Source: a virus (lineage: Duplodnaviria > Caudoviricetes). Taken from it: a stretch of 64,000 nucleotides of DNA. Made by a program: the position numbers and the translations under genes. Below the pieces are notes generated by a model. It searched no databases. It was not told the origin of the DNA and worked only from the letters and a program-made list of their open reading frames with translations. The DNA lies in the IMG/VR virus record IMGVR_UViG_3300020577_002562, positions 96,001 to 160,000 of that record, one strand, 5' to 3'. The stretch's first letter is position 1; each line of letters begins with the position of its first letter. This document shows, piece after piece, positions 5,209 through 35,634 of this stretch.

Positions 5209-5931
5209 CTACCACATGGTATCAGACTGAAGATCGTAGTGTCCGACTTTGATGGAACAGTCGATGGCACAACGATAGCCGTGCTTCTTGGCATCCGCCC
5301 AGAAGTACAGATCTTGGGTGGACACGCCTTCTGTAGAGCTAGCCGTAGTCTTGAACCACGGTTTACGAAGACGCTCGTCCTTGAACATCGAAAGTCTGAA
5401 TGCGGTGAACCCCATGCCGGTGCCGTTGCACTCAACTAGACCCCCATTCGGATCAGGTCGGCATGGCTTAAAGTTCAGTGGATGCTCGTGAGGGTTGCCC
5501 CAAATCTGAGGCTGTCCACCAAACCCCTTCGTAAAGTACAAGCCACCAATGGCAGCAAACTCTGGGTGGTTCTCCATCTGCGACAGCAATCGTACAACAC
5601 CATCAGGTGGTGGTGCGTTGTCGTGCTCCATCATCAGCAGATACTTGAAATTAGCCAGATCTGGGTTCGCCAGTATGGCAGTGATGGTTCTGCTGTACGC
5701 GTCACCCACTTCCATGTTCAGCGGCCAGAAGCGTGCATACTTTTGGTTGGGTGGTGTAAACAGTTGTATCCAAGCCGCCACCACTTTGGTTGGTACCTGA
5801 CCGAACGCTGGAACAATCTGGATGCAGCTCAAGTCTTTGTAGGCTGCTGTTTGTTCCAAGCGTTGCATCGTCGCATCCAAGTCTCGGTTGTGGATGCCTG
5901 GATCATATGAGCTGACGATTTGCGGTTCCAT
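5209..5931 (-). CDS. GT-A fold (family 2-like) glycosyltransferase
   Basis: YLLMMEHD (DxD position), GTGMGFTAF, QDLYFW, IDCSIKVGH pattern typical of phage GT2 proteins. Confidence 0.7.
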   Translation of the reverse strand: MEPQIVSSYDPGIHNRDLDATMQRLEQTAAYKDLSCIQIVPAFGQVPTKVVAAWIQLFTPPNQKYARFWPLNMEVGDAYSRTITAILANPDLANFKYLLMMEHDNAPPPDGVVRLLSQMENHPEFAAIGGLYFTKGFGGQPQIWGNPHEHPLNFKPCRPDPNGGLVECNGTGMGFTAFRLSMFKDERLRKPWFKTTASSTEGVSTQDLYFWADAKKHGYRCAIDCSIKVGHYDLQSDTMW

Positions 5932-5964
5932 GACTTGCGTGTTCCCGTATCTTGGGGTTGAAGA

Positions 5965-8900
5965 TTAGCCGATTGTGGCATTCAGCATCTGCATGTAGAA
6001 CAGATGTTGAGTATTAGTGCTGATAGCCGATAGAGACATTGTGCCGGTGGTTCCTGTTGCTGCTCCAGGTATTGCTCCTAAAAGAAGTTGTTTAGATGCT
6101 GCGGATGCTTGACCGAATGTACCAAAGCTCAACGAGCCTTGCTGCGTCACTATGAAGTTCGAGACGTTCAGCAAGCCTGATTGCGACGAACCACCGCCAG
6201 TTGTAGCAGCACTGGATACTCTGTGTGCCATCCAGTATTCGCCCGCCGTTAGAGTAGTCACCAACGGTATGGCAACAGCTTTGTAGCCGGTGAGAGCAGA
6301 TGCCCACGAGGTGTTGGTAGACTGGCTATTCGAGAAACCTAGAACACCGCCAGTGCTGTCGGTCACCCACTGCATCTGGAACGACGCCGACGATGACGAC
6401 TGTGACAGACTAGCAGTAACTGCCCAGCTTCCACTCGCTACAGACACTAGGTTTGAACTGTTAGCACCGTAGTCTTGTCTTGAGAAGAAGGTGACCCCGT
6501 GGAACTGAACTTGGGTAATTGAGCAGCTAGAGTTTGCTGTGGACAGTGCTGGTATCACTGCCGACATAGACTTACTTACAACCACAACCTTCATCGCCAA
6601 ATCTTCTTGGATATTGAACGGGTTGAAGTAGTAGCTGGTCGTGTGCGAGGATGTCGAGCTACCTGTGATACGCGGATACGGCTCAAAGAACTGCTGTTGC
6701 GTAGCATTCCCTTGAATGATCAGCGTATCATTGCTCACGCCTACTGACACACCGCTCTGTCCAGAGATGATCTGGCTCAGGTGCGATACTGTGCCGCTGG
6801 TGTTCTTACCAGCAACCGTGTTGGCGCCTGTCGCATACCAGGTGCTGTTGGCAAGCGCTGCGGTAACGATGCTAGAGTTCGACATCCCAAACGAGATGTT
6901 GTTGCTGTTACTAAAGACAATCGTACCACTGGTAGCAGTCTGCGTGCCTGCCGCAATGTTCGGCCCCGTCTGATTTATGACGCCACCGCCACCGCTGATT
7001 ATCAGCGTATTGCTGCTGACACCTACCGATACGCCACCAGCACCACTGATGATGTACTGATCATTATTGAAGGCTCCAGAAGTGTTCGTACCTGCAATGG
7101 TGTTGGCGCCAGTCGCAAACCACGAGTCACTACCCTCAGATATGGAGAGTGCCAAGTTCAGGCCGTTGCTGTTTAGCGTAGCAGAGGCATTTATGTTGGT
7201 TAGCCCAAGCGTTGTTCCAGTACCAGCATAGCCTCTAGCGTCTAGAGAAATACCACCACTGTTGACCGACCAGGTGACATTAGACTGAGCAGTATTCAAG
7301 CCAACGGCATCAGTCGATGCGCGTGCCGTAGTCAACCATGCCGGATGCTGGAACCAAACAGTGTTGGGACCACCAACCGCCGTGGATTGAGACAGAGTGA
7401 TGGATTGAGATCCTGCCAGAACCCAGTCAACCCCCGTGCTTACACCTGTATTACCGGCGGTCTGTCCTGTATTCGATACGCCTAATGCTTTGATAGCAGA
7501 TTGATTGCTCTGCGCAACCGTGTTGGGTCCACTGATGGTCAGCGACACAGAGCTGCCATTTGAGGACTGGCGCAAAGTGATGTTGTTGCCGCCGATCAGG
7601 ATGTACCGAAGTCCGGCTCCGTCGAATGTTCCTGTAGTACCAGCGGTGTTGCCATTGGTACTCATGCCGATGTTGATCGGATCGAATGAGGCAGTTATCA
7701 CACTGCTATTCGACATCCCAAACGTGATTTTGTTGCTGTTGCTAAAGACAACAGTACCACTGGTAGCGGTTTGTGTACCCGCTGCAGCGCTCGGCCCACC
7801 TCCAGCGCCACCAGTCTGTGAAATAACAACCGACCCCCCAGACATACCGACACTGATGTTGCCAGCACCACTGAAACTCAGTGATCGGGCATCAACAGTG
7901 GAGCTACTTGACTGCCCAGTCGTGTTACCGACGTGGTACAGCCCAACTGTTTGATTAGTTTGTGCTGCGTAAGAAGCACTGGCAGTAATGACACCTGCGG
8001 CCAACCCAAAGCTAACGTTGTTGCCGTCAGACAGAGTGAGTGTTGTCGAAACAGTAGATACACCCCCATTAACCGCCAGCGCGTTCACACCATCCGCCGC
8101 CCCTGCCGCCCCTCCGCTAATGGTGATGGCATTACCGTTCTGACTCAGAGTGATATTGTTGCCACCTGCCAATGACAGTACGCCACTAGAGACCTGCGCC
8201 ATTACGCCAGCAGTGTTGCCACTTAGCGTGAGGTTGAAGCGATCTTGGGTCTGTACGGTCTGTGCCGCAGTGGTTGCCGAGATGCGCAACGACCCATTAG
8301 ACATACCCACGGACACAATACCCGCGCCATCATAACTGATGGACCTGGCGTCAACTGTGGAACTAGAAGACTGTCCGGTGGTGTTCCCTACTTGGTACAG
8401 CCCTACCGTCTGGTTGGTTTGAGCTACTGTATTGGGACCACTGATCGTGACGGCATTACCATTCTGCGACAGGGTGATGTTGTTACCACCCGCCAAAGAC
8501 ATGGTCCCAGAACTGATCTGAGCCATCACCCCAGCCGTGTTGCCACTCAACGTGACATTGTGCAGGTTCTGGGTCTGGACTGTTTGTGCAGCAGTGCTAA
8601 CGGACAGCACCACTGATCCGCCAGACATACCGACACTAATGTTGCCAGTGCCTTGAAAGCTCAAGCTACGCGCATCTACGGTGGAGCTACTGGATTGTCC
8701 TGTGGTGTTACCGACACCATAAACCCCAACGGTTTGTGCTGTTTGCGCCGGGACCGTCGCAGAAATTCTGAGCGACCCGGCAGACATGCCGACCGACACA
8801 ATACCTGCGCCATCGTAACTGATCGAACGAGCATCAACTGTACTGCTACTGGATTGTCCTGTTGTGTTTCCTACACCATACAGTCCAACTGTTTGATTGG

Positions 8901-16619: not shown

Positions 16620-18983
16620 CTACTTAGAAGCAGCTCCTAAACCAGCCGGATTAGATGCTGGACCCCCGCCAATCGATCCAATATTCGACGGAACGGGATT
16701 ACTACTAAATCGTAATCCCGAAGCGGTCGGTACTGCAATGCCCATCGTGGAAGAACCTGCGCCAATACCAGCAGAAATTCCACGTTGACGTGGAGGTTTG
16801 ATGTGCTTCTTGCACCACTCATCGTCCAACAAGAACTTGGTACCGAGTGCCCATGCTCTCCAAATATCATCTGTAAGCCCAGGTGCCTTTTCGATTGTAC
16901 GGCCTCCATCGCGAATGGTAGCCAACTGAAGCAAGAAGTGTTCCACAGGTAGATACTGGAAACACTGTGGATAGTTGTCCTGCATCAACAGTATCTCTTG
17001 AAGAGGAATTCCAGAGGCTGGAATCCTGAATGACCGGTCCAGAATGTGATTCTGCACCAGTAGCATATCATCCCTCTTCAATGAGTATCGTTCCGCTGGA
17101 ATACCAAGAGCCTGTGACAAATCATGCAACAACTTGATGCTATTCCACTGATCAGCAAACACGTAGCACACGTTGAAAGCCTTAGCTAACGGAAGCAATA
17201 CATGCTCATAGACCAGAGAGAAGTTCACCACGGAGTTACCAATAGAGGGCGCAATCTCAAGCATCACATCTGTGATGACTTTGATAGGGTCTCTTCTATT
17301 AGGGTTGCGATGAGAGATGGTGCAGGTAAATGAGTTGTTAGACAAGCCTGCGTCGATGGTCATTACCGATGAGATAACCAGAGCCGGCGGATTGCATGCC
17401 ACTTTGGCGTAACGATACTTGACTCCGTGCCGTTCGACCTTATGGTAGTTGTACACCACTCTGTTAGGCACTTTGCCAGGCAGCGCCGATATTGCATCGT
17501 GATCCTGAATAAACGCAGAGTCTACGAGAGGTGGTTGTGCACCAAAGTCACGCATTGCCTTGGCTTCACTACTTTGGAAGTAGGAGTCCAGAGCTTTGCG
17601 GCTGAGTTTAGGGTGAATGTCCCAAGTAGCCAGATGCAACGCCAATATCTTCCGACTGTTGGCGTTGGACTTTACGTGACGCATCATCACGTCACGTCTA
17701 TGCTGAGGGCTAGAGCCTATGATGAACACGGCATTCGGAACATCGTAGTACCCGGATTTCACTCGGTCTTTCCAACCGACGCGCACGTTCAGCATGCTGT
17801 TGTCGAGTGAGGTATAGACTTCACTACCGTTCATGCGAACGGTCTGATCTTCCTCATTACCGTCAGAGAAAAATGCCCACTCGTCCAACAGACAGTTGTG
17901 AACCAGAATGCCGTTGGCAGAGAACATATGGATGTCCTCCACCTCGATGTCATATACGTCGTGCTCTCCTTCCAGTTCTTCGCTGCGCCACAGACGATCA
18001 CGGACGATGTGATTGTTGTCTCGCACCTGGTAGTCGAACGGATTGTCAAGTAGGACGCGAAATGCAGTTGTAGAGTTGCGGTGAATCTGAAGTGTACTGG
18101 GGCGTCGGACAGACAAAACACCAAGGCTCAGCAGCAGAATCTGAGTCTGCTGCATGCGCTTGTCTTCACCGAACAAGACAAAGCTATCCTGGAACAGCGC
18201 AGATAGATAGGCACTGACATGGATCAAAGATGACCGTAGAATCACCCATGGTACTTCGCCTCTAGGAAAGCCCCATTCGGATTCTGCGTATTCGTCATCT
18301 GCTAGCTGTGAGGCTAATTCGCTGGTCATGCGATGTCTAGTTCCATCCTTTTTTCGGAACTGGTCCAAGTTCTTTCTGGAAGCCCCGTTCGCACCGGCTA
18401 CAATGACCACATCGCTAGGTTTGATGTGCTGTGCTTGACGCCACACCATATCATTGTGCTCATCCGAACACATCACCAGATGAGCAGGAGTCAGATCCAA
18501 ACTGAACCCAAATGTGGTTGTCAAACGTATCAGCTTCTTCGCACCTGTACGCATAGCTCTAAGTACAGTAGCTGGAGCCCCAGCTACGCACACACGATTT
18601 TGGTCTGGTATGATACGTTGCATCTCTATGAGACCCAAGTCCGTTTGGACAAGTGCATCACCTCGAATGCATAGCCAACGTGTCTTACCACGCAGCAGCT
18701 TACGGTTTGGACCTGCTGGATACAGCATCAATTGCCGATGAGGATAGTGAAGCATCTGTGTCTGAAACTTCAGAAGCTCCTCGCCATTGCGATTACCCTC
18801 ATGCTTGAGCATGTCGTGATAGCCGCAATTATGTACATTCATGCCACCTGCGTAGTAGTTGTGCGTCCCTGCTACCTCGAAATCGTACACCTTGTGCTTA
18901 CTCAAGTCCGTTACCGACCTGACCTTAACCGCCTTGATAGTCTTACCATTAACGGTAATGATCTTACTTGATTCGGTTTCCAT
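16620..18983 (-). CDS. Terminase large subunit, C-terminal part (split-intein C half plus one cis intein)
   Basis: Begins with IntC (VYDFEV..HNYYAGGMNVHN/C). After intein removal reads LRGKTRWL-CLLDEWAFF (Walker B); nuclease motifs IDAG and DD. Confidence 0.85.
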   Translation of the reverse strand: METESSKIITVNGKTIKAVKVRSVTDLSKHKVYDFEVAGTHNYYAGGMNVHNCGYHDMLKHEGNRNGEELLKFQTQMLHYPHRQLMLYPAGPNRKLLRGKTRWLCIRGDALVQTDLGLIEMQRIIPDQNRVCVAGAPATVLRAMRTGAKKLIRLTTTFGFSLDLTPAHLVMCSDEHNDMVWRQAQHIKPSDVVIVAGANGASRKNLDQFRKKDGTRHRMTSELASQLADDEYAESEWGFPRGEVPWVILRSSLIHVSAYLSALFQDSFVLFGEDKRMQQTQILLLSLGVLSVRRPSTLQIHRNSTTAFRVLLDNPFDYQVRDNNHIVRDRLWRSEELEGEHDVYDIEVEDIHMFSANGILVHNCLLDEWAFFSDGNEEDQTVRMNGSEVYTSLDNSMLNVRVGWKDRVKSGYYDVPNAVFIIGSSPQHRRDVMMRHVKSNANSRKILALHLATWDIHPKLSRKALDSYFQSSEAKAMRDFGAQPPLVDSAFIQDHDAISALPGKVPNRVVYNYHKVERHGVKYRYAKVACNPPALVISSVMTIDAGLSNNSFTCTISHRNPNRRDPIKVITDVMLEIAPSIGNSVVNFSLVYEHVLLPLAKAFNVCYVFADQWNSIKLLHDLSQALGIPAERYSLKRDDMLLVQNHILDRSFRIPASGIPLQEILLMQDNYPQCFQYLPVEHFLLQLATIRDGGRTIEKAPGLTDDIWRAWALGTKFLLDDEWCKKHIKPPRQRGISAGIGAGSSTMGIAVPTASGLRFSSNPVPSNIGSIGGGPASNPAGLGAASK
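17895..18671 (-). mobile_element. Cis intein (259 aa) with degenerate LAGLIDADG remnant
   Basis: CIRGDALV block A, LTPAH block B, VYDIEV...NGILVHN/C end; YLSALF and LLLSLGV remnants. Confidence 0.85.
18828..18983 (-). mobile_element. Split intein C-fragment of terminase (52 aa)
   Basis: Blocks F/G ending VHN followed by Cys+1. Confidence 0.9.
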
Positions 18984-19845
18984 ATTTGTCCATTACTAAG
19001 AAGGAAAATTTGAAGCCTTGCGCTCGACACGCACGTCGTTTAGCTCGATTCACTTCCTTGCTTGCTTTGAGTGTGTAATCACTCTTGACCTCGTAGATTT
19101 TATTCCAACGAGGTACGTAAATGTCCGGATGGTATATCCTTCGCTTGCCATCAAAAACATATTCAATACTGGGCAATTGTTTGTCACCGATGCCGCAACG
19201 AATGTCTGATGGCTGTAGTCTCGTGTTCGACAAAAGCCACTCAATAGCCTGAGGCTCATAACCTTGGACTTGAACCATTCGCTGACCGAGTTTGATTCGT
19301 TTGCATTTATAGGCAGTAGCCAGATTTTTGTCGAACAATTCCTTACTCTGAAGTGCGTGAATCACTCCATATCGTTTACGCATTGTACGTCTAATCTTAC
19401 TCTGAATTTCAGTACGTTGCGTGGAGTATTCGACTCCGTACTTGCGTAAGTTGTATTGCTTAAGCTTCTCTTGAGAACACGGCGGACAGCCACTTCCTTT
19501 TCGCACATTGCCCAAGTATGGCGACCACTCGTGTTTGCACACTAAACATTTCACACGAGTGCGCGTGTTCATGTTAACGAACTCACCTACGCGCTTTATA
19601 TTCTGTTGTCGCAGAAACTTGTCTAGCTCATTCAGGTCGAAGCGTTTACTCTGACTTATGTTGCGATTCCGGGTACAGGCACATCCATATCTGAGCCAAT
19701 AACTGAAATGTTGGGAGGACTGCCGATCACAATCTTGGCAGCGCACTACCAGTTTGTACTGGTGCTGTGGGTCAACACCAACTACTAACAATGACGAACC
19801 GCTACTTTTCAGGTAGGACTTCACAATTTTTAGATTATCACTCAT
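18964..19845 (-). CDS. Free-standing homing endonuclease (Zn-ribbon repeats plus PD-(D/E)XK domain) between the terminase halves
   Basis: CLVCKHEW..GSGCPPC, KYGV repeats, QGYEPQA, HPDIY...EVKS; visibly more AT-rich than flanks. Start ATG 19845 (GTG 19854 is the alternative). Confidence 0.8.
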   Translation of the reverse strand: MSDNLKIVKSYLKSSGSSLLVVGVDPQHQYKLVVRCQDCDRQSSQHFSYWLRYGCACTRNRNISQSKRFDLNELDKFLRQQNIKRVGEFVNMNTRTRVKCLVCKHEWSPYLGNVRKGSGCPPCSQEKLKQYNLRKYGVEYSTQRTEIQSKIRRTMRKRYGVIHALQSKELFDKNLATAYKCKRIKLGQRMVQVQGYEPQAIEWLLSNTRLQPSDIRCGIGDKQLPSIEYVFDGKRRIYHPDIYVPRWNKIYEVKSDYTLKASKEVNRAKRRACRAQGFKFSFLVMDKYGNRIK

Positions 19846-19890
19846 GGTACTCACCGAATCACATACATCAAATTAGTCGGAGTACCATGA
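19842..19890 (-). promoter_or_regulatory. Start-codon-sequestering hairpin with CTAATTT in its loop
   Basis: TCATGGTACTC (19842-19852) and GAGTACCATGA (19880-19890) form a perfect 11-bp inverted repeat; motif at 19870-19876. Confidence 0.7.
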
Positions 19891-29153: not shown

Positions 29154-30116
29154 CTACCACTTGATTCCGATGGTTGGACTGTCGTCAACTACTCTACGCC
29201 CCTTGTTCATGTACTTCATGGCGACTTGTACCTGCTCTCGGTCGATCTTGAATCTCTCAGGCTTGTAGGTCTGCCAGAAGCAAGTGCGCAGACAGCCACG
29301 ACTAGGGCCGTAGTCCTCTATGAAATGCTTGATCAACGGTTGTTGCTTGCCGTCCACCACTGTCCGTATACGTGCAGTCTCTTGCGCCAGCTTAGGTGGA
29401 TTGGAAATCGGTATGACCTCGTAGATGGTGTCCCATCGCGGGATGTTCAAGCCGACTTGCACGATCCGTCGGATACCAACGATGATGCGAATGCGGCCGC
29501 TTCGCGCATCTTGCAGTATCTTAGGACGCTGCGTGTTCCGTTCGACCTGACCAGTGAATGCGGCAGCAATGTCGCGGTCTTTCCCAGTCATACGTCGGTA
29601 TGCCTTGTTCAGCACGTTGGTCAGCAGCATCGCGTGCTTCACTCGATCCACCGGGATGACGATTGACCGGTCGTGCTTGATAACGTCCTTCAGCGCGTGC
29701 TTGACTATCAGTGTGTTACGTTGCTCGTTGTTGGACAACCAAGTGATAGCACCCGGCCATGTCTTGTGACCGGCGTGCGTAACCCCAGTCTCTACGAACT
29801 GAACACTAGGCACCAGCGTATTGGCTTGCCCCTCGGCACGTACAGGACCGATCACCAACTGAGAGAGTATGATCTTGCCATCTTTGCGATCATACGTCCC
29901 CGTCAGTCCGATCATGTACAACGAGTTCAACTGAGCCACTACTTTGAGGTACTCATCCGCCGCAGTGTCGTGGCAATTATGAACGAGCACACCTTTGTCT
30001 GAGTCTGGGCCATAGACAAAGTAGTTGTGATGCTGCTCCACTCCTATATCGTACACATCTACAGGCGCATCCAGTTTGATATGCTCTACTGATGACACTC
30101 TCACTAATTTTGTCAT
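29154..30116 (-). CDS. SF2 (UvsW/XPB-like DExH) helicase, C-terminal part beginning with the split-intein C half
   Basis: VYDIGVEQHHNYF...VLVHN/CH, then GLTGT..RKDG (motif III), GLNIPRWD (V), QETARIR (VI). Confidence 0.9.
   Translation of the reverse strand: MTKLVRVSSVEHIKLDAPVDVYDIGVEQHHNYFVYGPDSDKGVLVHNCHDTAADEYLKVVAQLNSLYMIGLTGTYDRKDGKIILSQLVIGPVRAEGQANTLVPSVQFVETGVTHAGHKTWPGAITWLSNNEQRNTLIVKHALKDVIKHDRSIVIPVDRVKHAMLLTNVLNKAYRRMTGKDRDIAAAFTGQVERNTQRPKILQDARSGRIRIIVGIRRIVQVGLNIPRWDTIYEVIPISNPPKLAQETARIRTVVDGKQQPLIKHFIEDYGPSRGCLRTCFWQTYKPERFKIDREQVQVAMKYMNKGRRVVDDSPTIGIKW
29976..30116 (-). mobile_element. Split intein C-fragment of helicase (47 aa)
   Basis: Blocks F/G ending VHN, Cys+1. 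Confidence 0.9.
30104..30110 (+). promoter_or_regulatory. CTAATTT motif upstream of the antisense endonuclease
   Basis: 36 nt upstream of ATG 30147, overlapping the first codons of helicase IntC on the other strand. Confidence 0.5.
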
Positions 30117-30146
30117 ACTGGTGAATCATGTATTGGAGTTAAGGGC

Positions 30147-31175
30147 ATGTTACGTCAAGATCATCCGCGATTTCATCAAATGGTGTCCCGACATAGAGCC
30201 CTGTGCTCAGTAAGAAAGATAAAATTCACTGCCAAGATTGTTGACTTGAGCACTACACGTTATTTACATCGTTGTCACTGTGGTCATGCTTGGAAGCAAA
30301 CTATATCGAACTTTGTTGGCCGTACTGGATGTCCTGCTTGTGCGATGCGGCGTTTTCAACTAGCTGGAGCAGCTTCCGCGCGTGGAAAACCTGCGCATAC
30401 GAGACTAACAAAAGGGGAGTTTCTGAAGCGGCTTCCTAAAGGCTATCGTCTAATCGGATCTTACTCAGGACAACGCGAACTAGTCTCATTGAAATGCCCA
30501 CAAGGTCACATAAGACGAACTACAGCGGACAACGCCCATCGTTATGGCTGTGGTGTATGCTCGGGAGTTGAAGTTTCACTTGACTCCCACAACAAGCAAT
30601 TGGCTGCTCTGAATGACCGTGTTCGTTGCCTGCAGTATTTTGGGGCACGCACAGCATCCAGATACCATTGTCTACAGTGTAAGTTTCGCTGGTCTTGCAT
30701 CCCTACAAACATTTTGAAGACTAAACGATGTCATTGTCCGAGCTGTCAACCACCTGGCGTAACTGTCAGATGCGTCAAGCTTGGGCGTCGCAAAGTGCTT
30801 GTTCGTGGATACGAGCCACAAGCTCTAAACTATTTGATACAAGTGAAGGGGTACAAACCTAACCAGATTCGTACAGAGCTTGAGGGAACTGTCCCAAGAA
30901 TCAAAGTCAATGGGCGACTTCATAAACCCGACTTTTTCATCCCAAGCGATAACCGTCTGGTAGAAGTCAAGTCGATTTTCACTCTCGGACTCAACGGTGA
31001 GCTATATTTCAAAAGAGCATTCCAGAAGTTGAAGACTAACCACGCAAAAGCCCGGGAGGCAGGGTACCGATACAACTTGCTAGTTTTTCTCAAAGACGGA
31101 ACGCGAGTAGACATACCTAGTAAGTGGTATCTATTGAGCACTGAACAAATGCGACAGTTACTTCGACAACAATAG
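30147..31175 (+). CDS. Free-standing homing endonuclease (Zn-ribbon repeats plus PD-(D/E)XK) between the helicase halves, antisense
   Basis: Three Cys/His ribbons; VRGYEPQAL, KPDFFI..EVKS; paralogue of 18964 and 34265. Confidence 0.8.
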   Translation: MLRQDHPRFHQMVSRHRALCSVRKIKFTAKIVDLSTTRYLHRCHCGHAWKQTISNFVGRTGCPACAMRRFQLAGAASARGKPAHTRLTKGEFLKRLPKGYRLIGSYSGQRELVSLKCPQGHIRRTTADNAHRYGCGVCSGVEVSLDSHNKQLAALNDRVRCLQYFGARTASRYHCLQCKFRWSCIPTNILKTKRCHCPSCQPPGVTVRCVKLGRRKVLVRGYEPQALNYLIQVKGYKPNQIRTELEGTVPRIKVNGRLHKPDFFIPSDNRLVEVKSIFTLGLNGELYFKRAFQKLKTNHAKAREAGYRYNLLVFLKDGTRVDIPSKWYLLSTEQMRQLLRQQ

Positions 31176-32174
31176 CTCGTCATTTACCGTTAACTCCGAT
31201 GCCTTCACGTAATCTTGTCTAGTAACCGACCAAAACTTGTGGTTCGGAGTGCACAGAAGTTCTCTACCATCAATAGTGACGCGCACGAGATGGGTAACAG
31301 CTTTCTTTGTGAAGCTCTCTATGGGTTTGAATTCTCGTTTCCCAGATTGATGATTGAAGCACTCGACAGTCGTCTTGTAGCCGCTTTCTACAATATCACC
31401 TAAAGACATCAGCCCATTTTTGGTCTTTACTCTATGACCATAGGTGAAGCATTCATCTATGATGATGGTCCCAAAGTGATCCTTGATCTGTTCAAGCTTC
31501 TTCTTGCCACCAGCAGACAAGAACGTTTGATACGTACACAGCACGATGTCATACTTCAGCATATCCTTGACATCAGTGACTATGCCAGCGATCTTGCGTC
31601 CGTTGAACTTCTCTAGGTCGTCAATGTTGGTTACTGCATCCGCACCTTTGAGCGACAGCATGAACTGGCGCAACCAATCGATCTGGGCCGCAATGATCAG
31701 CGTGCGATACCCGATCTTGATCGAAGCAGCTATCGCCATCACTGTCTTGCCCGAACGCGGCGGAGACAGTAAGACACCCCGCTTCTTCTTGATGATCGTG
31801 CGTACAGGATCGCGTTGATTCTTCCAGAGCTTGCCTGTGAATTCGATGGCGTGACGAAACCGCTTGTATTCGGAAGCAGGCTTCTCTCTAGTGACAGTGA
31901 TCGGCTTACCAACTACTTCCTTGACGATTGACGGACGTCCCAACGGTAAACCAAGCATGCCATCTCGTTTGGTCCACAAGTGGTAAGTGCCCCGGAACTC
32001 AGGGCATTCGTCGCAGATGTCACAGTGACGCTCTTCTAGGTACTCACATTTGTTGCATGCTTTCTCGTTGTAGATGCGGATAGTCAGGTGTTTTTTGGCA
32101 CGCTCTACATTCTGCTTCGTAGCTGGCACCCACAGCTTGGAATTACGTACCGCCTCAACTGCTTGAGTCTTCAT
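31158..32174 (-). CDS. SF2 helicase, N-terminal part ending in the split-intein N half
   Basis: SPPRSGKT Walker A, TYQT, IIIDE/CFTYGHRV intein start. Confidence 0.9.
   Translation of the reverse strand: MKTQAVEAVRNSKLWVPATKQNVERAKKHLTIRIYNEKACNKCEYLEERHCDICDECPEFRGTYHLWTKRDGMLGLPLGRPSIVKEVVGKPITVTREKPASEYKRFRHAIEFTGKLWKNQRDPVRTIIKKKRGVLLSPPRSGKTVMAIAASIKIGYRTLIIAAQIDWLRQFMLSLKGADAVTNIDDLEKFNGRKIAGIVTDVKDMLKYDIVLCTYQTFLSAGGKKKLEQIKDHFGTIIIDECFTYGHRVKTKNGLMSLGDIVESGYKTTVECFNHQSGKREFKPIESFTKKAVTHLVRVTIDGRELLCTPNHKFWSVTRQDYVKASELTVNDELLLSK
31161..31451 (-). mobile_element. Split intein N-fragment of helicase (97 aa)
   Basis: CFTYGHRVKT block A, CTPNHKFW block B, YVKASEL..D.L end then stop. Confidence 0.9.
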
Positions 32175-34264: not shown

Positions 34265-35104
34265 ATGCCTCCAGTTTTGCGTTCACAAGTTGAAGTTACT
34301 CGTCTACTAAATAGTAACAATCCAACTATACGATCTATATCCGAGTATAGAGGATGTAGAAGTGAAGGACAATTCGAGTGCTTAGAGTGTAAGCATGTTT
34401 GGTCAGCTCAATGGAGACGCATAATACAAGGCGCAACAAAATGTCCTCGATGCGTATCTGTAAGACTTGGAGGCAAAAACAAGAAAACGCACCAAGTCTA
34501 TTGTGAAGAACTTGCGTTGGTCGATCCTTCTATCCAGCCTCTAGAAAAATACGTCAATAGCTACACGGCTATTTTGCATAGACATGAGTGTGGGCATGAG
34601 TGGAGACTAATGCCGTTAAACTCACTCCGCGGTAGAGGCTGTCCTAAGTGTAAGCTTCGTTTGCGCACCGTCAAATTGGGGGCCCGAAAGGTTAACGTGC
34701 GTGGATATGAAGCCATAGCTTTAAAGTGGCTTGTTCGTAACAAGAAAGTCAAACCGTCTGAAATACAAACACACAACGAGAAAACGGTACCTAATTTTCT
34801 ATATCACCACAGAGGTAGGCGAACATATTTCCCAGACTTTTACATACCCAAAACGAATTGTATAGTCGAAGTCAAGTCTTTATCAACCGTAGGCATTCTT
34901 GGTAACTTCTTTAATCTTAAACCTAGAACTCTGTTCTCGCTCACACAAGCCAAGGCTAAAGCTGTACTGAACGCAGGCTATCGTTTTAGACTATTGATCA
35001 TGGGCAGCGATGGCAATAGAATACCGACTCCGAAAGGATGGCTTCGTATGACACACAAAGAATTTTGCGCGTCTATCGGACCTGAGCATACCAGCAAACA
35101 TTAA
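34265..35104 (+). CDS. Free-standing intergenic homing endonuclease (Zn-ribbon plus PD-(D/E)XK)
   Basis: CLECKHVW..KCPRC, VRGYEAIAL, FPDFYI..EVKS; AT-rich, antisense to neighbours. Confidence 0.8.
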   Translation: MPPVLRSQVEVTRLLNSNNPTIRSISEYRGCRSEGQFECLECKHVWSAQWRRIIQGATKCPRCVSVRLGGKNKKTHQVYCEELALVDPSIQPLEKYVNSYTAILHRHECGHEWRLMPLNSLRGRGCPKCKLRLRTVKLGARKVNVRGYEAIALKWLVRNKKVKPSEIQTHNEKTVPNFLYHHRGRRTYFPDFYIPKTNCIVEVKSLSTVGILGNFFNLKPRTLFSLTQAKAKAVLNAGYRFRLLIMGSDGNRIPTPKGWLRMTHKEFCASIGPEHTSKH

Positions 35105-35634
35105 GCGGAGTGTTCTCTTTTTGTGACTATCTCAAGAGCGTTTAGACTATTTTTGATTGCCCAAGAAGCTTTGTCGAGGTCTTCCACCACCAAGTTGACC
35201 ATCTCAAGCAGAGAGTCTAGGTGATCTACACTTTCTTGAGCCCGCTGTGTCAGCAAATTGATCAGTGCTCGCTGACCGGTCTTGGTACGAACGCCCATAT
35301 TCGATAGCTGGGACTGGTACTCGGATTCGATGTATCGTTGAATGCCGAACAGTACAGAGGCCAAGTAGTTCCTGTTGCGTGTGATCAGCAGTATGATTTC
35401 AATGCACCGGCTGCGATAGGACTGGTCTTGAAGCCCAGCCTCTGACAATTTGCGAGCACCGGATTTGCTGGACAAGAGGCGCACACCCCGAGCCTTGTGC
35501 AGCTTGATCACCTCTTCCAGCCAAGTCTCGAACTGAGGGTCCACTGCACGCTTGGCTACTACTCTGAATGCCTTGTACCGTGTGTCTTGTCTTAACAGCT
35601 TACGCAGCTTGAGCAAGGAGCTAGTTGGCGCCAT
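35101..35634 (-). CDS. Helical hypothetical protein (UvsY-like candidate)
   Basis: 177-aa coiled-coil pattern in the replication block; function is a guess. Confidence 0.5.
   Translation of the reverse strand: MAPTSSLLKLRKLLRQDTRYKAFRVVAKRAVDPQFETWLEEVIKLHKARGVRLLSSKSGARKLSEAGLQDQSYRSRCIEIILLITRNRNYLASVLFGIQRYIESEYQSQLSNMGVRTKTGQRALINLLTQRAQESVDHLDSLLEMVNLVVEDLDKASWAIKNSLNALEIVTKREHSA

Follow-up and report, generated by a model that had tools for sequence, protein, structure and literature searches.

A superfamily-2 (SF2) DExH helicase gene that is broken inside its motif II (DE/CH, the slash marking the splice point) by what its sequence indicates to be a naturally split class-1 intein, and that harbors an endonuclease gene on the opposite strand between its two halves, was identified in the genome of an uncultured large phage (Duplodnaviria; Caudoviricetes). 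The locus occupies positions 29154-32174 of a 64,000-nucleotide (nt) stretch, termed here the window, which corresponds to positions 96,001 to 160,000 of the 187-kb IMG/VR virus record IMGVR_UViG_3300020577_002562 (estimated completeness 75%). We assign a probability of about 0.8 to this reading, in which the helicase halves would be joined by protein trans-splicing and the intein together with the endonuclease gene would be mobile as a single cassette.

Three open reading frames (ORFs) constitute the locus. The helicase N-gene (31158-32174, minus strand, 338 amino acids (aa)) is composed of a 241-aa N-extein (31452..32174), which carries a Cys-rich zinc ribbon at its N-terminus, motif I (PPRSGKT) and the DE of motif II and ends in FGTIIIDE, and of the 97-aa N-terminal intein part (IntN; 31161..31451), which starts with CFTYGH and contains Cys1 and block B (C-T-P-N-H). 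The helicase C-gene (29154-30116, minus strand, 320 aa) begins with the 47-aa C-terminal intein part (IntC; 29976..30116), in which block F (VYDIGVEQHHNYF) and block G (VLVHN) were recognized, and continues into a C-extein of 273 aa plus the stop codon (29154..29975), which starts with CHDTAADE and provides the +1 Cys, the His of DECH, motif III (GLTGT) and the second RecA-like domain. The endonuclease gene (30147-31175, plus strand, 342 aa) is antisense to the helicase; its 5' end faces the C-gene/IntC start, with 30 nt between both starts, while its 3' end and that of the N-gene overlap convergently over 18 nt (31158..31175). The stop codon that terminates IntN and the N-gene (31158-31160, minus strand) is located inside the endonuclease coding sequence and would be supplied by the 3' end of that gene. 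The extein and intein boundaries were set by a script on the ORF translations, and by this script and the ORF list every figure given in a preliminary description of the locus (an N-gene ending in IIIDE and a 97-aa IntN, a 47-aa IntC followed by CHDT, an antisense endonuclease and an 18-nt overlap) proved to be correct; its proposal that splicing rebuilds the DECH motif is likewise borne out by the comparison with intact orthologs described below.

The host gene is, by its sequence, a UvsW/XPB-like SF2 DExH helicase with predicted activity. The N-half was matched by Pfam ResIII (E 1.1e-9, above the cut-off) and by phrog_16 and phrog_16259, both annotated as DNA helicase, and the C-half by phrog_16 (E 5.4e-23) and phrog_9690 (E 1.4e-19). 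A faint match to the NCBIfam XPB model was observed. PHROGs 16259 and 9690 each already model a half-helicase plus its intein part. The joined exteins (514 aa) are colinear over their whole length, at 32-37% identity, with orthologs that are uninterrupted in Burkholderia phage BcepSauron, Ralstonia phage phiRSL1 and Xanthomonas phage PhiXhv-12, and the alignment is gapless at the junction. These orthologs possess motif I as PPRSGKT, motif III as GLTGT or GLSGT, and VDEIH or VDEVH at the junction, which places the intein between the E and the x of DExH, so that the +1 Cys becomes the x. The ortholog of PaBG has been called a uvsW-like repair/recombination helicase (PMC7412058). Motif I and the DE are thus encoded on one polypeptide, while the other carries the remaining H of motif II together with motif III and the second RecA domain, and it is reasonable to expect from this sequence arrangement that the ATPase activity would depend strictly on trans-splicing.

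The intein parts carry all the marks of class 1, namely Cys1, the block-B Thr-x-x-His, blocks F and G ending in His-Asn, and the +1 Cys. The NCBIfam intein models TIGR01445 and TIGR01443 matched N-gene residues 242-314 (31.7 bits against a cut-off of 24.5) and C-gene residues 20-48 (26.2 bits against a cut-off of 15.6), respectively, and the matches of Pfam Intein_splicing and PT-HINT were weaker than these. C1, T68 and H71 of IntN are invariant across six loci (the window and five related ones), and H46, N47 and the +1 residue C48 of IntC are invariant in an alignment with three related loci. The sole sequence match of the intein among solved structures was the NrdJ-1 split intein (E 0.0024 in a PDB sequence search with IntN). 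In complex modeling the pair of IntN and IntC obtained a score of 0.87, the highest-scoring of three controls standing at 0.00, with at least 96% contact agreement between runs and a partner pLDDT (predicted local distance difference test) value of at least 81; the score mark applied is one that 58 of 80 solved complexes attain, as do 2 of 110 mismatched pairs, and because split-intein complexes have already been solved, passing it reflects likeness to them and is not evidence that the pair binds. The element is therefore classified by its sequence as a naturally split class-1 intein of the HINT domain with its parts on separate ORFs, for which trans-splicing is predicted. The two helicase halves would be made as separate proteins, the 97-aa IntN and the 47-aa IntC would dock into one HINT fold, and Cys1, the block-B Thr and His, the terminal His-Asn and the +1 Cys would carry out trans-splicing to give a 514-aa helicase with an intact DECH box. 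The predicted complex of the intein halves would equally suit a two-subunit helicase that is held together non-covalently by the intein parts and never spliced, and split enzymes assembled by non-splicing interaction domains are reported for a phage NrdA (PMC3045599). Such an explanation is considered very unlikely, because every residue of the splicing chemistry (C1, T-x-x-H, H-N and C+1) is conserved and a 144-aa HINT domain would have to sit inside motif II.

The antisense gene encodes, by its conserved residues and modeled fold, a PD-(D/E)XK nuclease of the DUF7487 family with a TnsA/Vsr-like fold, whose cleavage activity is predicted. It is constructed of zinc-ribbon modules and a C-terminal PD-(D/E)XK domain (about residues 205-339), and its matches to Pfam DUF7487 (29.9 bits against a cut-off of 27) and to DUF4379, a treble-clef zinc finger (25.7 bits against 24.5), were both just above the cut-offs. 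E223, P261-D262 and E273-V-K275, which constitute the PD-(D/E)XK signature, are invariant in an alignment of 21 homologs. Although phrog_559 matches the protein (E 1.4e-21), the label HNH endonuclease attached to that PHROG is unsupported in view of the PD-(D/E)XK residues and the fold. The AlphaFold2 model showed a mean pLDDT of 82.5, with values above 90 over most of the C-terminal domain. When residues 205-339 of this model were compared with solved structures by the exhaustive structural aligner VIA-align, the matches included the TnsA catalytic domain (1t0f; Z 8.7, root-mean-square deviation (rmsd) 2.5 Å over 101 aligned residues), Vsr (1cw0; Z 7.8) and the homing endonuclease I-Bth0305I (3r3p; Z 6.4, rmsd 4.4 over 88 aligned residues, the motif of the window enzyme being E...PD...EVK), and the top of the list was occupied nearly exclusively by nucleases with a restriction-endonuclease-like fold. 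A sequence search against PDB chains gave no match at E <= 1.

The antisense three-gene layout is not confined to the window. Protein searches of phage records, supplemented by database and IMG/VR searches, revealed it in ten helicase loci at two insertion sites, as opposed to one same-strand locus. Site a (DE/C) is occupied in eight loci, including the window, Yersinia phage fHe-Yen9-02, Vibrio phage vB_VcorM_GR11A and five further loci (L087, L088, L089, L090 and L177), and site b (TATPKRKD/C, after motif III) in Dickeya phages JA33/JA11 and in L197. The endonuclease overlaps the N-gene by 64 nt in fHe-Yen9-02, by 35 nt in GR11A, by 69 nt in JA33/JA11, and by 35, 74, 14 and 27 nt in L087, L088, L089 and L090; the endonuclease call in L089 is short (159 aa) and may be truncated, and the antisense nuclease of GR11A differs in its C-terminal nuclease motif and is without a Pfam match. 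The single same-strand locus, L008, contains the same intein at DE/C together with a same-strand endonuclease of the same family, exactly in the layout of the published fractured genes. No near-identical match to the locus DNA was obtained by megablast against 50,697 phage records. The window derives from an uncultured IMG/VR contig of incomplete estimated content, which leaves room for an assembly artefact such as an inverted segment. The recurrence of the identical layout in three isolate genomes and six other metagenomic contigs from unrelated samples implies that it is neither chance nor misassembly, and an artefact is hence regarded as practically negligible.

Two side observations were made on the isolate genomes. 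The 375-aa antisense endonuclease ORF of JA33 (MH460462.1; L003:1953-3080, plus strand) is unannotated in the GenBank record. The N-half of GR11A (MT366761.1; L002:3045-5384, minus strand) additionally contains a 442-aa contiguous intein in its Walker A motif (PPRSGK/C...VHN/T), so that together with the fractured site this one helicase would need one cis-splicing and one trans-splicing event.

Intein-less and contiguous alleles, the search for which had been suggested in the preliminary description, were both encountered among the relatives. Most helicase orthologs are intein-less, including L007, which is the closest extein relative of the window (42% identity), and Dickeya phage JA29, while L047, L058 and L066 are more distant helicases in which related inteins lie at DE/C in unbroken ORFs with an out-of-frame architecture. 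Among the Dickeya phages, JA33/JA11 possess the cassette and JA29/JA13 do not, and in the comparison of JA33 with JA29, 1538 bp replace 42 bp between flanks that are 92.5-92.8% identical. The 1538 bp correspond exactly to IntN, the antisense endonuclease gene and IntC, and since JA29 is without exactly this cassette, the intein and the endonuclease have been acquired or lost together. Differences extend to the flanking codons, which read ARKD-GLSYRVTS in JA29 and KRKD-CLHYRVES in JA33. Judged from the sequences, a replacement of this kind would be expected after homing of a composite element or after its precise loss. The inteins of the window and of the Yersinia phage are 50% identical, whereas their exteins are only 31% identical, which, together with the intein-less state of L007, argues for horizontal spread of the inteins; conversely, the exteins of the Yersinia and Dickeya phages are 66% identical, yet their inteins are found at different sites. 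IntN, the antisense endonuclease gene and IntC would accordingly form one mobile cassette of 1.5 kb, in which the endonuclease would cut intein-less helicase alleles at co-infection, given a cleavage specificity for that site, and repair would copy the whole cassette into the cut allele.

As for the origin of the backwards gene, the preliminary description had proposed that the endonuclease invaded the intein, and this view is supported by several lines of evidence, in line with the model of Dassa et al. The enzyme belongs to the PD-(D/E)XK class, and members of its family are found free-standing between ordinary genes, which supports an invasion of the intein. One of them is located in the same genome, where a paralogous gene (34265..35104, plus strand) encodes 279 aa that are 40% identical over the aligned part (query residues 151-331). 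Two further members (L091:4001-5248 and L093:4001-5200) are situated antisense between non-intein genes, with DNA polymerase A and one other gene, and PTPS and phosphoribosyltransferase, as the respective neighbours; both extend 35-50 nt into the 3' end of the gene that converges on them, much like the endonucleases of the helicase loci, and no intein motifs were seen in the products flanking free-standing members of this type. A survey of IMG/VR with a degenerate DNA pattern recovered 106 family members, 70 of which have both neighbours called; 44 of these are co-oriented with both neighbours and 13 are antisense to both. The idea that the whole family is habitually antisense was rejected on these counts.

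The phylogeny bears on the same question. In a quick maximum-likelihood phylogeny built from the nuclease domain, whose 103 columns allow limited resolution, all helicase-intein endonucleases fall into one subfamily of 17 sequences with a Shimodaira-Hasegawa-like approximate likelihood-ratio test (SH-aLRT) value of 99, and the seven placeable antisense endonucleases of site a constitute one clade (SH-aLRT 95), so that their cassettes look like one lineage in which the orientation was inherited. The same-strand endonuclease of L008 lies outside this clade and is grouped with free-standing copies, and from its position it looks like a separate acquisition. It is conceivable that the endonuclease was at first an in-frame or same-strand element of the intein that was inverted later, in which case the antisense state would be uninformative with regard to invasion; at L008 the same intein, inserted at the same site, does contain a member of this endonuclease family in same-strand orientation, and indels or inversions have been named as routes between architectures (10.1101/2025.01.02.630785). 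This course of events is judged unlikely, because the L008 enzyme does not belong to the antisense clade and the family is mostly free-standing; the genome of the window was counted on the same side, where of three family copies only the one at 34265-35104 lies outside any intein. Invasion of the intein by a free-standing endonuclease thus remains the supported origin.

Certain observations weigh against the proposed reading as a whole. Pfam Helicase_C matched the C-half weakly (E 0.0028, under the gathering cut-off); the fold Z values of the nuclease domain are middling, the best being 8.7, and Foldseek with the whole endonuclease model returned no match at E <= 0.001. No convincing Shine-Dalgarno sequence was recognized before the C-gene start, and when the divergent start regions of five loci were aligned, no common promoter or ribosome-binding motif emerged, and none was conserved for the C-gene or the endonuclease. 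The missing ribosome-binding site of the C-gene would also suit a decaying remnant, in which the helicase was destroyed by insertion of the endonuclease and function has been lost from the intein halves or from the endonuclease. Decay is nonetheless held to be improbable: each half is a complete ORF, no helicase motif is missing, the catalytic residues of the intein are invariant across loci whose exteins are just 31-38% identical, those of the endonuclease are invariant too, and the layout persists in viable cultured phages.

The signals by which the two strands would be transcribed are not conspicuous. A promoter-like candidate of sigma-70-like type was located at 30092..30119 on the plus strand (ATGACA, 16 nt, TG-CATACT); it lies upstream of the endonuclease start, at a distance of 28 nt, and over the first IntC codons. 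Three promoter-like sites were found in the region, a chance level in comparison with the 3.5 expected from shuffled sequence, and this candidate is not conserved in the other loci. No minus-strand terminator-like site was detected between the helicase halves, the terminator counts in the region being at chance level, and it is plausible that the halves are co-transcribed through the antisense gene. The RNA fold of the 5' region of the endonuclease gene was no stabler than those of shuffled sequences (z +1.2), which indicates that a hairpin of the type reported by Dassa et al. is absent.

The layout is a variant of the known fractured-gene arrangement, which was disclosed in 2009 by Dassa, London, Stoddard, Schueler-Furman and Pietrokovski for gp41-1, gp41-8, NrdJ-1, IMPDH-1, NrdA-2 and others (PMC2677866). 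In common with those systems, the window locus is of phage origin, is split at the usual endonuclease-insertion point of the intein, and encodes an endonuclease with a restriction-endonuclease-like fold that is related in fold to their Vsr-like family. In their set, all three ORFs are on the same strand in 26 of 26 loci, the endonuclease is preceded by a 27-51-nt spacer and a hairpin and often runs with its 3' end into the IntC start (PMC2677866). The window locus differs in that the endonuclease lies antisense and reaches with its 3' end into the IntN end, rather than being co-oriented and abutting IntC, and furthermore in its host, an SF2 DExH helicase being absent from their eight hosts, and in its DUF7487 nuclease (E...PD...EVK). 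In Pseudomonas jumbo phage MIJ3, a DNA polymerase B is split with an HNH endonuclease gene between the halves (PMC6892783); it shares with the window locus the breaking of a jumbo-phage replication gene by a split intein and the endonuclease gene placed in between, and it differs in the host protein and in the type of nuclease.

Endonuclease ORFs on the opposite strand have been reported for non-canonical inteins of actinobacteriophages, which carry anti-sense LAGLIDADG or VSR-like endonuclease ORFs (bioRxiv 10.1101/2025.01.02.630785). There, too, the authors inferred invasion by a free-standing endonuclease and movement of intein and endonuclease as a unit. Those inteins are contiguous, with the host frame open through the antisense gene, while the intein of the window is split into two genes, and both the endonuclease family and the host protein are unlike those of the window. 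Out-of-frame endonuclease ORFs are also known from the cyanobacterial dnaX intein (bioRxiv 10.64898/2026.09.14.751524) and the phage methylase ShiLan element (PMC11855218), which are similar in that the endonuclease is encoded apart from the splicing domain within the intein region and dissimilar in that it lies on the same strand in an overlapping frame of an unbroken host ORF. Published fractured genes are thus same-strand, and published antisense endonucleases are restricted to contiguous inteins; no antisense endonuclease inside a split intein was found in the literature covered, outside of which subscription journals largely lie. We tentatively raise a further possibility, to which we give rather less than even odds, namely that the backwards orientation may be a selected property of a stable composite element rather than an accident of insertion, in which convergent transcription would let the halves share one message while silencing or mistiming the endonuclease, and that this design was kept while it spread among jumbo phages and moved between DE/C and RKD/C.

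Several additional observations concern other members of these families. The free-standing paralog at 34265-35104 is antisense to ordinary minus-strand neighbours and shares 4 nt with the 3' end of the gene at 35101-35634. The terminase large-subunit gene of the same genome (16620-20891, minus strand) is broken by a split intein as well (IntN 94 aa, IntC 52 aa), between the halves of which a second paralog of the endonuclease (18964..19854, minus strand, 296 aa) is present on the same strand; this copy belongs to the other major clade of the endonuclease tree, and the terminase C-gene carries a further contiguous intein. Same-strand fractured genes with the same endonuclease family were observed in other host proteins in IMG/VR (L116, L129 and L205); judged by short motifs only, the hosts in L116 and L129 resemble a RecA/UvsX-type recombinase and that in L205 a ribonucleotide reductase.

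Inteins related to that of the window but situated in an unbroken host ORF were likewise recovered from IMG/VR (L047/L048/L049, L054, L055, L058, L063, L066, L068, L072, L078, L079 and L082), several of them at the same DE/C helicase site. Inside them is found a same-strand endonuclease ORF of 210-320 aa, always in the +1 frame, as exemplified by L047:4405-6858 with its inner ORF at 5315-6019. The inner ORF is of DUF559/Vsr-like type in L047 and L079 and of HNH type in L072, and the host-frame linker has no Pfam match. They add about a dozen new examples to a rare out-of-frame architecture known from work of 2025-2026.

These results extend the fractured-gene model, in that a free-standing endonuclease can lodge in an intein either way round, with the backwards form capable of being both stable and mobile. 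They also add a natural split-intein family, with parts of about 95-105 aa and 42-47 aa and a Cys at +1, which may be useful for protein ligation, and expose annotation gaps in public records, where the JA33 endonuclease ORF is missing and the helicase halves are labelled as hypothetical proteins. The main value is attributed to an antisense cassette that is conserved at two sites within a single helicase family, and to the cultured phage pairs; Dickeya JA33/JA11 versus JA29/JA13, along with fHe-Yen9-02 and GR11A, provide a ready system for studying the homing of split-intein cassettes and the expression of antisense endonucleases.

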